A stretch of 64,000 bases of DNA from Thermoplasmatales archaeon SW_10_69_26 (GCA_003009755.1 PXUB01000001.1:85854-149853), one strand, 5' to 3'; counted from the stretch's first letter, positions 1,436 through 38,136 are shown. Notes: a model not told the origin generated them from the letters alone. Made by a program: numbers and translations.

Positions 1436-1670
1436 GATCCGTCCCCCTCTCCCGCGGATCACGCACGGCTCGTGCCGCATCAGACCCAGCCGTCCTAATC
1501 CGGGAGAGGGGACAGCTGACGCTATTCCCCTGTCAGGATCTTGGATCAGTCCCCTCTCCCAGGGATCACGGACGACCGTGCTGCGGTGTCTGCGGTCGTC
1601 CTAATCCGGGAGAGGGGACAGCTGACGCTACTCCCCTGTCAGGATCTTGGATCAGTCCCCTCTCCCGGAT
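1436..1670. repeat. 106-bp-period tandem palindromic repeat derived from the tRNA-Tyr 3' end
   Basis: 1491-1560 and 1597-1666 differ at one base; degenerate third copy at ~1436-1463; each unit has AATCCGGGAGAGGGGAC...GTCCCCTCTCCC. Confidence 0.9.
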
Positions 1671-1770
1671 TCGAACCGGGGACATCCTGCTCTCTGCAGC
1701 GCCTGTCGGGTGCTCACCCGAGAGTGTTCTTCTACAGGCAGGCGCTCCGGCCAGTCTGAGCTAAGAGGGG
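1656..1770 (-). tRNA. tRNA-Tyr(GTA) with 40-nt intron at position 37/38 (1692-1731)
   Basis: Acceptor stem CCCCTCT/AGAGGGG, anticodon arm CCTGC-CTGTAG|A-GCAGG, T-loop GTTCGAATC. Confidence 0.95.
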
Positions 1771-1932
1771 AGCGCCAGGCGATTCCAGAACCTGTACTTC
1801 AGCGTTCCGGCCCCGGCCGGGAGCGGACGTCGCGAACACCTGCCCCGAGCCCGGCAACTACAAGGTAGGCGAGGTTTTCATCGCCGCCGCGGTCGGCGCA
1901 GCGTTCCGCGGACCGCGTGCGGAGGACGACGC

Positions 1933-2310
1933 TTGCCCGACGACACCGTCACCGAGCCCGAGGAGCCCATCGTCGACGAGGACAAGGTCCAGGACCTGCG
2001 TTCCCTGCTCGGCGACGGCCCCGAAGGTGTCGACGGTCTGATCGACACGTTCGTCGACCGCATCCCCGAGGTCATCGAGGACCTCGAACAGGCCGCCAGC
2101 AACGGCGACCTCGAGGAGGTCGGCAACCTCGCCCACAAGGTGAAGGGCGAATCCGCCACGCTGGGCGCCAAGCGGCTCTCGGAGCTGGCCAAGCGCATCG
2201 AGGGGCAGGCCCGCAACGACGAGCTGGCGGACCCCGAAGCGGCGGTCCAACTGCTGATCGACGCCTACGCGGAGACCGAGGACGCCTACGCGGCGCGGCG
2301 CAAGGATTAG
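1933..2310 (+). CDS. Stand-alone Hpt (histidine phosphotransfer) protein
   Basis: AHKVKGESATLGA matches the Hpt consensus. Confidence 0.9.
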   Translation: MPDDTVTEPEEPIVDEDKVQDLRSLLGDGPEGVDGLIDTFVDRIPEVIEDLEQAASNGDLEEVGNLAHKVKGESATLGAKRLSELAKRIEGQARNDELADPEAAVQLLIDAYAETEDAYAARRKD

Positions 2311-2709
2311 CTACTTGATCCGGCCCGAGCTGCCCTCCTCTCGCCGGAGCAAGCGGATCAGCTCCTCGACGTCCGAGGAGTGGATCGGCTTCTGCAGGAA
2401 GTCGAAAGCCCCCTTCATGATCATCTCGCGCACACGGGGATCGTCCTCCATCAGGCCCGTGATGACGACGACGCGCGTGTCGGGGTCCTCGTTGAACATG
2501 ACCTGAGCCGTCTGATCGCCGTCCACGTCGGGCAGCATGATATCCAGCAGGACGATGTCGGGTTTCTCCGCTCGGAAGACCTCGAGCGCCTCCTCCGAGC
2601 TCTCCGCCGTCAGGATCCGCTCATCCCGGTCCGTGAACCGCCGAAGCATCTTCTCCAACGTCTGGCGGATGACGGACGAGTTGTCGACGATCAGGTACGT
2701 GCGGCTCAT
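2311..2709 (-). CDS. Single-domain response regulator (CheY-like receiver)
   Basis: LIVD, PDIVLLDIMLPDVDG, VITG and FLQKP motifs. Confidence 0.92.
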   Translation of the reverse strand: MSRTYLIVDNSSVIRQTLEKMLRRFTDRDERILTAESSEEALEVFRAEKPDIVLLDIMLPDVDGDQTAQVMFNEDPDTRVVVITGLMEDDPRVREMIMKGAFDFLQKPIHSSDVEELIRLLRREEGSSGRIK

Positions 2710-2799
2710 CGTTGGCGCTCGCGAGCGGTCCCCCCAGACCCATCTCGGTCCTCAACGTATAAGTTCCTGGCGTTTCCCCCTGCCGCGAAGGTCAGCCTC

Positions 2800-4257
2800 T
2801 CAGAACAGCGTCTCCTGCTTGCGGTGCTCCTCGCCGGGGATATCGACCGGATACCGACCGGTGAGGCATCCGGTGCAAAGGCTGCCCTCGGGCTTCCCGA
2901 TCGCTCGCTTGAGACCCGGGATCGAGACGTAGGCGAGGGAGTCGGCACCGATCGTGTCGCGGATCTCCTCGACGGACTTGTCGGCCGCGATGAGCTCCTC
3001 GCGCGTCTTCATGTCGATGCCGAGGTAACAGGGCGCCTGGATCGGCGGGCACCCGATACGGACGTGGACCTCCTCGGCGCCGGCCTCGCGCAGCATGTCG
3101 GTGAGCTGGCCCATCGTCGTGCCGCGCACGATCGAGTCGTCGACGAGCACGACCCGGTTGCCCTCGACGACGCTCTGGACCGGGTTGAGCTTGATGTTGA
3201 CGCCGCTGGCGCGCTCCTCCTGGCTGGGCATGATGAACGTGCGGTGCACGTAGCGGTTCTTCATCAGGCCCTCCGCCATCGGGAGATCGAGCTGCCGGGC
3301 GAACCCGAGCGCGTGCGATCGACCGCTGTCCGGCACGGGCACGACGATGTCGGCGTCCACCGGGCTCTCGTTGGCCAGCTGCTCGCCGATGCCGACGCGC
3401 ACGTCGTAGACCTCGCGGTCGTCGATGCGGCTGTCGGCGCGCGAGAAGTACACGTACTCGAACTGGCAGTGCGCCAGGTCGGCGCTTTGCGCGTTCGTCA
3501 TGTGGCCCTCGTAGCCGCCGGGCGTGATCTCGACGATCTCCCCCGGCTTCACGTCGCGGATCGGCTCGCCGCCCAGGGCCTCGATGGCGACGGTCTCGCT
3601 GGCGACGGCGTAGCCGCCGACCTCGCTCTCGGAGCCGTTCTGACCGCCGTAGGCGGCCGGCAGCTTGCCAAGCGCCAACGGCTTGATGCCGCGCGGGTCA
3701 CGGACCGCGAGGATCCGTTCGCCGACGACGAGCACGAGGCTGTAGGCGCCCACGATCTGCCGCATGACGCGACGCATCGCGCGCACCGGGGACTTCGCGT
3801 CGGAGAGCTCGTTGGCGAACAGGCGGACGATGACCTCGCTGTCGTTGTCCGTGATGAACGCCCAGCCGCTCTCCTGGAGATCCTCGCGGATCCCGTCGGC
3901 GTTCACGATCTCGCCGTTGTGGCCGAGCGCGATCGAGCCCTCGGCGCTGGAGACGCACACCGGGTGCGCGTTCTCGAGCCGCGAGGTGCCGGCCGTCGAG
4001 TAGCGGGTGTGGCCGAGCCCGACGCGGCCCGTCAGCTGCTCGAGCTCCTTGGCCTGGAAGATGTTCTCGACGAGGCCCATGCCTTTGATCGTCTGCAGAC
4101 CGTCGTCGAAGGTCGCGATCCCGGCCGACTCCTGTCCACGGTGCTGGATCGCGCGCATCGCCTGGTAGAGGGCGGGCGCAACGTCCCGCTCCGCGGCGAT
4201 GCCAGCGACCCCGCACTTGTCCTGCGCGAGCCCGGAGCGGTCCGGGAGACCATCCAT
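2800..4257 (-). CDS. purF: Amidophosphoribosyltransferase
   Basis: CGVAG, QHRGQESAG, GHTRYST and VDDSIVRGTT motifs. Confidence 0.97.
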   Translation of the reverse strand: MDGLPDRSGLAQDKCGVAGIAAERDVAPALYQAMRAIQHRGQESAGIATFDDGLQTIKGMGLVENIFQAKELEQLTGRVGLGHTRYSTAGTSRLENAHPVCVSSAEGSIALGHNGEIVNADGIREDLQESGWAFITDNDSEVIVRLFANELSDAKSPVRAMRRVMRQIVGAYSLVLVVGERILAVRDPRGIKPLALGKLPAAYGGQNGSESEVGGYAVASETVAIEALGGEPIRDVKPGEIVEITPGGYEGHMTNAQSADLAHCQFEYVYFSRADSRIDDREVYDVRVGIGEQLANESPVDADIVVPVPDSGRSHALGFARQLDLPMAEGLMKNRYVHRTFIMPSQEERASGVNIKLNPVQSVVEGNRVVLVDDSIVRGTTMGQLTDMLREAGAEEVHVRIGCPPIQAPCYLGIDMKTREELIAADKSVEEIRDTIGADSLAYVSIPGLKRAIGKPEGSLCTGCLTGRYPVDIPGEEHRKQETLF

Positions 4258-37100: not shown

Positions 37101-37156
37101 ACCCGAGTGGTCGCCTCGAGAGGGCGAAATGATTGGCCGGACTACACCACGGGACC
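37082..37156 (-). tRNA. tRNA-Glu(CTC)
   Basis: Acceptor GGTCCCG/CGGGACC; anticodon arm TCGCC-CTCTCGA-GGCGA. Confidence 0.95.
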
Positions 37157-37299
37157 GTTCCGGCTTGCGCCGTGAGCCCAGCAACCCCATCAGCATCAAA
37201 AAGGTTGCGGGCGGCGCTTGCGACGCCTTGTCGCATCCGCCTTCCCCCTCGATCCACGCTCTCGGCTGGAGCCGCTGCTCTTCGCGTTCTTCCTGCACG

Positions 37300-37844
37300 A
37301 AACCTTGACCAAGCCCCACGTAGTGACCCCGCCGCCGCTTACGTGCGGGCTGCGGGGGTAGCCTAGCCAGGTCATTCGAACGGATCGGAGATCCGTCCTC
37401 TCCCGGGATCCGCGCGAGTCGCCGTCGGTTCCCGGGATTCGCACGGACCTCGCACCGTCGTCGGTTCGTACTCGCCCGAGAAGGCAAGCTTCTCGGGCAT
37501 CCGTACGGCCAAGGCCGTACTCGCTCGGAACCGAAACACGGTTCCTCGCGGAAACCTTGACCTGGAGGCGACCTCCATCGGCACAAGTCTGCGGAGGTAG
37601 CCTAGCCAGGTCATTCGTACGAACCGTTCATCCCTGCCGGTTCGTACTCGCCCGAGAAGGCAAGCTTCTCGGACAGGAAACCTTGACCTGGCAGGCTCCC
37701 TCATTGCCACGAGGTCTGCGGAGGTAGCCTAGCCAGGTCATTCGCACGAACCGCGCGATCGCTACCGGTTCGTACTCGCCCGAGAAGACGAGCTTCTCGG
37801 GCAGGAAACCTTGACCTGGAAGCTACCTCCATCCCACGGTATCC
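37300..37844. repeat. Tandem repeats of the tRNA-Ser 5' 23 nt with antisense copies (127-bp period)
   Basis: GCGGAGGTAGCCTAGCCAGGTCA at 37352 (1 mismatch), 37591 and 37718; tRNA at 37845. Confidence 0.92.
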
Positions 37845-37928
37845 GCGGAGGTAGCCTAGCCAGGTCAAGGCGCCGGTCTTGAAAACCGGTGGGCCTAGCC
37901 CACGGGAGTTCAAATCTCCCCCTCCGCG
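37845..37928 (+). tRNA. tRNA-Ser(TGA)
   Basis: Acceptor GCGGAGG/CCTCCGC; anticodon arm CCGGT-CTTGAAA-ACCGG; variable arm. Confidence 0.95.
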
Positions 37929-37933
37929 CTTCT

Positions 37934-38136
37934 CCAGGGCAAGGCGCCGGTCCCGCAGGACGCCCGTCAGGGCGTCCGAGGTGCGGACGAACCGACGATT
38001 GGAGGGTTCGTCCAGCATTGAAAACCGGTGGGCTTAGCCCACGGGAGTTCGAATTCCGGGACCGAGCCTGCCGGCGCCTCGGCCCCGCAAGAGCACGGAT
38101 CTGTGATCCGTGCGAATCTCCCCCTCCGCGCTTCTC
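37934..38136 (+). other. Interrupted duplicate of the tRNA-Ser(TGA) 3' three-quarters
   Basis: Pieces 37934-37952, 38018-38054 and 38113-38136 separated by hairpin inserts. Confidence 0.85.

Follow-up and report, generated by a model that had tools for sequence, protein, structure and literature searches.

The tandem units found at the ends of tRNA genes in this archaeon are members of the tRNA-linked repeat (TLR) class, which is typified by the 178-bp tyrT repeats of Escherichia coli, known as RtT. The window, meaning the whole stretch of DNA that was analysed, comprises 64,000 nt of Thermoplasmatales archaeon SW_10_69_26 (PXUB01000001.1:85854-149853), and coordinates are window positions unless a contig is named. 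It has a G+C content of about 70% and carries four tRNA genes. As the best explanation, we consider the units to be archaeal TLRs that act at the level of DNA, as selfish or neutral repeats propagated by host-driven copying and recombination, an account to which we give close to an even chance of being right. A preliminary description of this DNA had proposed a general, locus-matched system that recurs in related genomes, and in this part it stood. Its further suggestions, of units without obvious shared sequence, of a REPIN-like nature and of decoy attachment sites, were not supported, nor is the system a previously unseen one.

The pattern was assessed across the genome, an assembly of 2.82 Mb in 49 contigs that is 95% complete. 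From 52 ARAGORN calls, seven were removed by eye (T-loop absent, coding-looking surroundings), leaving a set of 45 tRNAs. A self-match was defined as an exact match of at least 12 nt, lying no more than 600 nt from the gene, to the first or last 28 nt of the tRNA itself. On this basis, 22 of the 45 tRNAs carry a self-match, against 1.19 expected from comparing tRNA ends with the flanks of tRNAs for other amino acids (50 matches in 1886 pairs), and the enrichment in the ±600-nt scan confirms a general pattern at tRNA ends. By type, 3' direct matches were found at 17 tRNAs, 3' inverted at 14, 5' direct at 5 and 5' inverted at 1. The exact direct copies of the 3' end measure 12-19 nt, and 15-nt copies with 0-1 mismatch were also found. 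Two further tRNAs have displaced arrays, namely Phe (13.4 kb) and Glu-CTC, whose array lies 8.4 kb from its gene because a low-GC island has integrated between them. Chance or an assembly artefact was ruled out by shuffle counts and by cover in independent runs.

Each archaeal locus holds 1-4 units. Those with a core hairpin follow the tRNA whose end they copy in 20 of 20 cases, 19 of them within 900 nt, while the remaining one lies 4.4 kb from its tRNA, behind an island. At its ends, each unit matches the tRNA of its own locus, as proposed earlier for arrays that copy their locus. Downstream of the 5S rRNA gene no unit was found, only a single 11-nt match inside coding-looking sequence.

The archaeal unit is a module of about 100-130 bp in which two or three hairpins stand between 12-20 nt of the gene end in inverted form and its last 16-23 nt in direct form. 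More specifically, the commonest unit begins with a spacer of 9-35 nt, followed by the inverted T-loop, the 3' strand of the T-stem and part of the acceptor strand. It continues with the core hairpin (GAAC-loop-GTTC) and two hairpins linked by AGAG, and ends with CGAA and the part of the tRNA that runs from its T-loop through its discriminator. Minimum free energy folds show a four-way junction in nearly all units of this type. The unit types at tRNA-Tyr and tRNA-Gly keep the closing helix and have their junction points elsewhere. A mirror-image plan, arranged around the D-loop, is present at the 5' ends of tRNA-Ser-TGA, Arg-TCG and Arg-CCT. Furthermore, several tRNAs are preceded or followed by partial tRNA copies with hairpin cassettes in the D, anticodon/variable or T loops; these inserts occur in partial copies that adjoin an intact gene.

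Contrary to the preliminary description, which had seen no obvious shared sequence among the units, their inner parts form a family with a core hairpin and conserved short linkers between hairpins (AGAG, CGAAT). Among 19 aligned units, the core is a perfect complement (GGATTYGAAC) in 11 and carries GGATGAGAAC in 8. Within arrays, unit ends are 0.96-1.0 identical and inner parts 0.56-0.57. The nearest inner relatives are found at isoacceptors: Leu-TAG pairs with Leu-CAG (0.79), and the T-loop-type unit of Glu-CTC is 84% identical in its inner part to the unit at Glu-TTC on a different contig (0.84). At T-stem G:U positions of tRNA-Arg-TCG and tRNA-Leu-TAG (two of two examined), the inverted copy has A opposite U and is therefore complementary to the 3' strand instead of duplicating the 5' strand, a pattern that fits templated copying.

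Assignment to a known class rests on the core alignment and on a covariance model, R1, built from 19 archaeal units only. R1 matches 47 places in the archaeal genome. It also finds all four RtT repeats of E. coli K-12 tyrT/tyrV at full length, with E-values of 1.6e-5 to 3.9e-5, in a locus that was chosen by its coordinates and not by the motif. These matches are co-extensive with RF00391 matches of 133-138 bits, and the next best R1 match has an E-value of 0.081. The system is thus not a previously unseen one. With RF00391, the window gave no RtT match at the gathering threshold (45 bits), loci of Serratia and Erwinia scored 79-89 bits, and a gammaproteobacterial metagenome-assembled genome (MAG) scored 30-38 bits.

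A scan of reference genomes with the short type-b core motif (GGATGAGAACC...GGTTCGA) yielded at least 119 stretches, 80 loci of which were examined; these serve as examples and not as a frequency or a taxonomic range. Among the matches listed, motif loci come from many bacterial phyla and from one Thermoplasmata record. At 54 of the 80 loci a same-strand tRNA ends 15-69 nt upstream of the motif, and in 42 of these 54 a copy of the tRNA 3' end (at most one mismatch in 12) lies 29-152 nt after it. Viral contigs, taken as a control, gave 21 motif matches, one with tRNAs and one with a model match. At two of the bacterial loci (L036, L071), in a gammaproteobacterial MAG and a Paenibacillus genome, the units repeat the tRNA end together with its terminator hairpin and T-run.

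Earlier papers on the E. coli repeats reportedly include those of Egan and Landy (1978) and Rudd (1999). According to a 2021 account, E. coli K-12 has 22 TLRs at ten loci, one to five at each, and the final 18-19 bp of every TLR are the same as those of the tRNA or rRNA upstream of it (PMC8144298). The archaeal units are alike: in both groups, units of about 100-180 nt directly follow a tRNA gene and end in its last nucleotides, the archaeal end copies measuring 16-19 nt. Both groups also share the closing helix with the complement of the tRNA end and the core GGAUGAGAACC-loop-GGUUCGA with its ...AAUCC border. In contrast to the E. coli TLRs, the archaeal copies lack CCA because the host is an archaeon. 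They reach about half of the tRNAs, compared with ten loci, and they have two core variants, the 11 perfect complements and the 8 units with GATGAGAAC. Further differences are the 5'-end mirror units, the pseudo-copies with cassettes in D, anticodon/variable and T loops, and the 5S rRNA gene, after which units are described in E. coli (PMC8144298) and none was found here.

That account deals with E. coli and Enterobacteriales, and it states no known function for TLRs (PMC8144298). In the literature covered by our search, two papers use the term 'tRNA-linked repeat(s)' and no listed title or abstract dealt with Archaea, and a search on haloarchaeal miniature inverted-repeat transposable elements and palindromic repeats at tRNA genes returned nothing relevant. 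New here are the archaeal host, the scale, the mirror-image units at 5' ends and the tRNA pseudo-copies with loop cassettes.

Within the window, copy counts against shuffles bear out the units of 102-127 nt reported for tRNA-Tyr, tRNA-Glu-CTC and tRNA-Ser-TGA, and the self-match scan of the 600-nt flanks found no repeat units at tRNA-Ser-GGA. Two units of about 106 nt each lie downstream of the tRNA-Tyr 3' end (1443-1654), and a 14-mer of this end occurs four times in 1500-1668, in alternating orientations, where 0.20 are expected. The first 21 nt of tRNA-Ser-TGA likewise occur four times (0.00 expected). Its upstream array has a period of 127 (units of 126-128 nt, 2.5 copies, 86% matches), each unit consisting of a direct copy of tRNA positions 1-23, two hairpins, the inverted copy and a spacer. 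R1 matches this array on the minus strand at 37357-37462, 37596-37701 and 37728-37824. Downstream of the same gene, the tRNA-Ser pseudo-copy is interrupted by two two-hairpin cassettes, at 37953-38017 in the anticodon loop and at 38055-38109 in the T-loop. No end copies occur within 600 nt of tRNA-Glu-CTC; its 3' end has six matches, including the gene itself, against 0.31 expected, and the copies in the displaced array form two pairs, each spaced 102 nt.

As DNA, most of these units fold more stably than expected, with z-values of -4.69 and -2.22 for Tyr units 1 and 2, -6.7 and -6.4 for the Ser-TGA units, -2.4 for the Glu T-loop-type unit, and -5.3 and -3.65 for the cassettes of the pseudo-copy. 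The 102-nt Glu unit gave -1.05, which is not notable; its folding frame began, rather than ended, with the direct copy. The folds of the Tyr and Ser units confirm the architecture that the preliminary description had drawn, in which the tRNA end pairs with its complement in a closing stem and inner hairpins are enclosed by it.

In many tRNAs and many direct copies, the discriminator is followed by the short trailer TTCTC (e.g., 37930-37934 and 38132-38136). This trailer is often one arm of a hairpin, the other arm being a GAGAAG further downstream, and may be a local termination or processing signal.

The units are also present in relatives, as R1 matches in 8 of 151 genomes of the phylum show, this one included; 24 candidates were scored per genome, so that these counts are lower bounds. 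A same-strand tRNA lies just upstream in seven of eight R1 matches fetched from relatives, and the eighth sits at a contig end. R1 matched neither of two genomes of the sister genus. A class-level pattern scan covered 21 genomes. At the tRNA-Tyr site, one relative has no unit, and the difference between two congeners is a complete unit that includes a trailer of its own. Contigs of related strains from other halite metagenome runs skip 126 or 176 nt, corresponding to one unit, and do not have the island. Occurrence is thus patchy, and units turn over between relatives.

Folding and mismatch patterns favour a DNA-level, host-driven repeat over a selected RNA, as do the patchy occurrence, the differing unit numbers of related strains and the lack of matches to HUH transposase, TnpB or reverse transcriptase. 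The arrays fold with -3462 kcal/mol in sense and -3485 kcal/mol in antisense orientation, with 62 and 80 internal G.U pairs, respectively. In the closing helices of 55 units from other genomes, the non-Watson-Crick cells comprise 50 G.U, 57 A.C and 187 others, which is the spectrum of random decay with no wobble excess. Moreover, the 5'-end mirror units match R1 on the opposite strand. We read this as an inverted copy that would be perfect at birth and would decay thereafter.

A serious contender, though on balance an unlikely one, is that the units are functional RNA modules. Within a read-through transcript, they would mimic the acceptor/T-arm minihelix and be recut by tRNase Z or RNase E and RNase P, serving as fail-safe processing or termination sites or as sources of small RNAs. 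The closing helix does end exactly like a tRNA, including the discriminator and the trailer, and the terminator hairpin is repeated in each unit at the two bacterial loci named above. Three rRNA-linked E. coli TLRs are described as transcribed and processed, and as binding Hfq and CsrA in vitro (PMC8144298). For the 19 tRNA-linked TLRs, however, the predictor of CsrA binding gave values below 0.01 throughout, and TLRs are presented there as having no known function (PMC8144298). The 5'-end mirror units lie on the wrong strand for such a role, fold energies and wobble counts are alike on both strands, the closing helices lack a wobble excess, and the patchiness among relatives and the turnover of units also speak against RNA modules.

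Several results weigh against a DNA-level repeat, and some of them at the same time support RNA modules. Bacteria and Archaea share the two non-complementary bases of the type-b core; this is not predicted by pure local templating and points to common descent or to selection on structure, and the conserved GA of the core, being non-complementary, suggests that the structure is under selection. Compensatory changes occur in 17 of the 23 consensus pairs of the R1 alignment, as expected of a selected structure. The direct copy remains near-perfect (in the 42 of 54 bacterial loci above), unlike the decaying inverted copy, and selection on the direct copy could explain its preservation as well as homogenisation does. 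RF00391 gave no match in 20 archaeal loci at E-values up to 10, and the strain differences rest on assembled repeat contigs that are possibly mis-joined. No seeding step was observed, and no nucleotide-resolution pair of empty and filled sites was found within one species.

Integrative elements at tRNA genes make att-site duplications, and tRNA sublocation classes of such elements were reportedly defined by Williams in 2002. Like these duplications, the archaeal units have direct copies of the tRNA 3' part at their borders. The genome has three Phage_integrase matches, each beside a tRNA with arrays (Gly-CCC, Phe and Glu-CTC). The archaeal units differ in being gene-less, in their length of about 100 nt, in their inverted copy and in their presence at 5' ends. 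The island at tRNA-Phe measures 13.5 kb and lies inside the tRNA gene (C19:58919-72750), with its integrase at C19:59113-59667. At its far end, a 13-nt att copy precedes the native trailer, and behind this trailer lies a 300-nt unit of six hairpins whose closing helix pairs the tRNA-Phe end with its complement. From this order it follows that the unit is older than the island and that the island entered the tRNA gene.

The low-GC island of the window is bounded by tRNA-end copies and is separate from the repeats. Contigs of runs X2-X4, from related strains, cover tRNA-Glu and the arrays, without cover at 36000-37000. The integrase-like open reading frame (ORF) of this island matches PF00589 with an E-value of 7e-4 and 19.8 bits, which is below the cut-off, and with 20.6 bits in the genome-wide search. 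A further stretch, 21866-28286, lies between tRNA-Glu 3'-end copies (21849 and 28287) with a GC fraction of 0.63-0.69; this stretch may represent an earlier, tandem integration of an island, and it gave no integrase match.

That the units are products of tyrosine integrases, as miniature or decayed elements (attP-only remnants) at tRNA att sites and possibly decoys, appears improbable. Direct tRNA 3'-end repeats flank the units as attL and attR would, every integrase match adjoins an arrayed tRNA, and in one congener the tRNA-Tyr end directly adjoins a new unit that has a trailer of its own. The 4.4-kb island at tRNA-Gly-CCC has a T-loop-type unit at its distal end, with no tRNA-end copy before this unit; this case favours integration but is ambiguous. 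Set against these points, three integrases face more than 22 tRNA specificities, the ends of island A are unlike the Glu units, and motif and model match coincide in only 1 of 21 viral-contig sites. The precedence of the tRNA-Phe unit over its island also counts against integrase products. Integration leaves the inverted copy and the 5'-end mirror units unexplained, and TLRs of E. coli follow 5S rRNA genes too (PMC8144298). The idea of decoy att sites did not find support either, since the islands at tRNA-Phe and tRNA-Glu entered the tRNA gene itself and left the repeat intact as a target.

Hairpin modules also occur away from tRNAs. A census of perfect 8-bp hairpins over 588 kb counted 742, compared with 511 in a Markov control; this background was too high, and clusters of perfect stems of at least 9 were therefore used instead. 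Genome-wide there are 112 such clusters, 30 of them within 600 nt of a tRNA, a zone that makes up 2.4% of the genome. The other 82 form intergenic arrays with the same linkers (AGAG, CGAATC), some inside long inverted repeats; examples are C42:29660-29960, C38:49380-49760 and C35:18950-19320. In addition, a dispersed two-hairpin repeat, CCGGAGACCGG...AGAG...CGGATTGCGAGGG, has at least five near-identical copies away from tRNAs and matches R1 weakly.

REP, BIME and REPIN elements are short intergenic hairpin modules, associated with RAYT transposases. The archaeal units resemble them in having hairpin modules and conserved linkers in mosaic arrays, some within longer inverted repeats. They differ from them in that no RAYT/Y1 gene was found in the genome, the stems vary, and the ends copy the adjacent tRNA. 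We regard it as very improbable that the units are non-autonomous transposons moved by an HUH/Y1 enzyme (REPIN/RAYT or IS200/IS605 PATE-like) and inserting beside a T-loop target such as TTCRA. Two-hairpin cassettes do occur in T-loops after TTCGA and end in CGAA(T), CGAAT is found on both sides of an insert in the tRNA-Ser pseudo-copy, and the clusters distant from tRNAs are similar. However, the 95%-complete genome has no match to PF01797 (Y1/HUH transposase; 6 of 14 control genomes matched) or to PF07282 (TnpB; likewise matched in control genomes), which speaks against the REPIN-like nature suggested at the outset. The hairpin sequences are too varied for a single enzyme, and the locus-matched end copies would not be explained. 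PF00078 (reverse transcriptase) had no match in this genome either.

For a host-driven DNA repeat, we infer the seeding and copying steps from the identity, anatomy, distribution and turnover described above. Such a repeat would have no enzyme of its own. Units would be seeded in whichever stem-loop is closest to the gene end, which on the sense strand is the T-loop and on the opposite strand the D-loop, and both end copies would be templated from the local tRNA. Host recombination between direct copies would then lead to gain, loss and homogenisation of units, and inner hairpin cassettes could be swapped among loci with common T-loop-like borders. The folded single strand would form a long helix imitating the tRNA gene end, with hairpins branching off. 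Integron attC sites and the attP hairpin of CTX phage are folded single-strand recombination sites. By analogy only, the archaeal units are comparable, with structure kept while sequence varies, and with an inverted repeat that folds into a target duplex around a variable, branched middle; their conserved motifs differ from those of attC and CTX attP.

A bolder version holds that TLRs are pan-prokaryotic and enzyme-free. Single-stranded tRNA genes would fold into cloverleaves on either strand, and at the terminal stem-loop a replication or repair process of the host, by template switching or snap-back copying, would write both end copies, inverted and direct, around a hairpin cassette. We treat this as speculative and rather unlikely.

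Two smaller observations concern hairpin loops and folds. GAGCGAAGCGAG recurs in hairpin loops of archaeal units (e.g., 28420-28432, minus strand) and is also part of the E. coli RtT consensus. Within this string lies GCGAAGC, which as DNA forms a very stable mini-hairpin. A hammerhead-like reading of GAUGAG-stem-CGA was rejected by inspection, as some of its bases are paired within the closing helix, and GAAA and C3/U4 are not kept.

The features of the window are listed below, together with the dispersed repeat copies on other contigs. Default ARAGORN and Rfam report three tRNA genes, one too few, the intron-containing tRNA-Tyr being overlooked by default ARAGORN and by the window-level Rfam scan. 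A fibrillarin gene is also present in the window; together with the tRNA intron it indicates an archaeon, and its protein gives a lead, no more, towards Thermoplasmatota. The sequencing runs in which the stretch occurs carry the label of halite metagenomes.

Table. Positions of tRNA genes, repeat units, islands and related features.
Feature	Position	Strand	Evidence or remark
tRNA-Tyr(GTA), 40-nt intron	1655-1770	-	ARAGORN with intron search; Rfam tRNA, 48.5 bits, whole-genome scan
tRNA-Ser(GGA)	17817-17901	+	ARAGORN, Rfam
tRNA-Glu(CTC)	37082-37156	-	ARAGORN, Rfam
tRNA-Ser(TGA)	37845-37929	+	ARAGORN, Rfam
Tyr unit 1: trailer hairpin, inverted 3'-end copy, one hairpin, direct 3'-end copy	1549-1654	-	
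Tyr unit 2: ends as in Tyr unit 1, different inner hairpin	1443-1548	-	Direct copy partly decayed
Ser-TGA 5'-end array, mirror-image units	37290-37844	+	Direct copies of tRNA positions 1-23 at 37354, 37593, 37720
Partial tRNA-Ser copy, from about position 17 to 3' end, with trailer TTCTC	37934-38136	+	Downstream of tRNA-Ser-TGA
Displaced Glu-CTC array	28230-28732	-	3'-end copies 28287-28303, 28389-28405, 28614-28630, 28716-28732; unit types mixed
Glu T-loop-type unit: inverted T-arm copy, core hairpin, two hairpins, direct copy	28387-28494	-	R1, 66.6 bits
Outermost tRNA-Glu-CTC 3'-end copy (21849-21865), then one 102-nt Glu unit	21760-21865	-	
Low-GC island (GC 0.55-0.66) in tRNA-Glu-CTC 3' end	28733-37081		Bounded by tRNA-end copies
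Integrase-like ORF of Glu island	36138-37100	+	End overlaps tRNA-Glu 3' end by 19 nt
DNA methylase domain ORF in Glu island	32909-34306		PF01555, E 1.6e-6
Dispersed two-hairpin repeat copies	C8:11862, C9:1624, C9:5397, C29:47132, C32:71839		

Taken as a whole, the same anatomy and core motif are present in an archaeon and, among the matches listed, in records from many bacterial phyla. Within a single genome, TLRs can occur at half of the tRNAs, and they include a mirror image at 5' ends. As TLRs occur in both domains and on both strands, an explanation must work in both, which leaves host recombination, host replication and a very general form of RNA processing as the candidates. The many young units in related strains constitute a natural data set on how units arise. 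The repeats are thus of a known but unexplained kind, found here in a new domain and in new variants, for which we infer a host-driven mechanism at the DNA level. If enzyme-free copying were true, it would provide a general, structure-templated route to new repeats at stable-RNA genes in Bacteria and Archaea.

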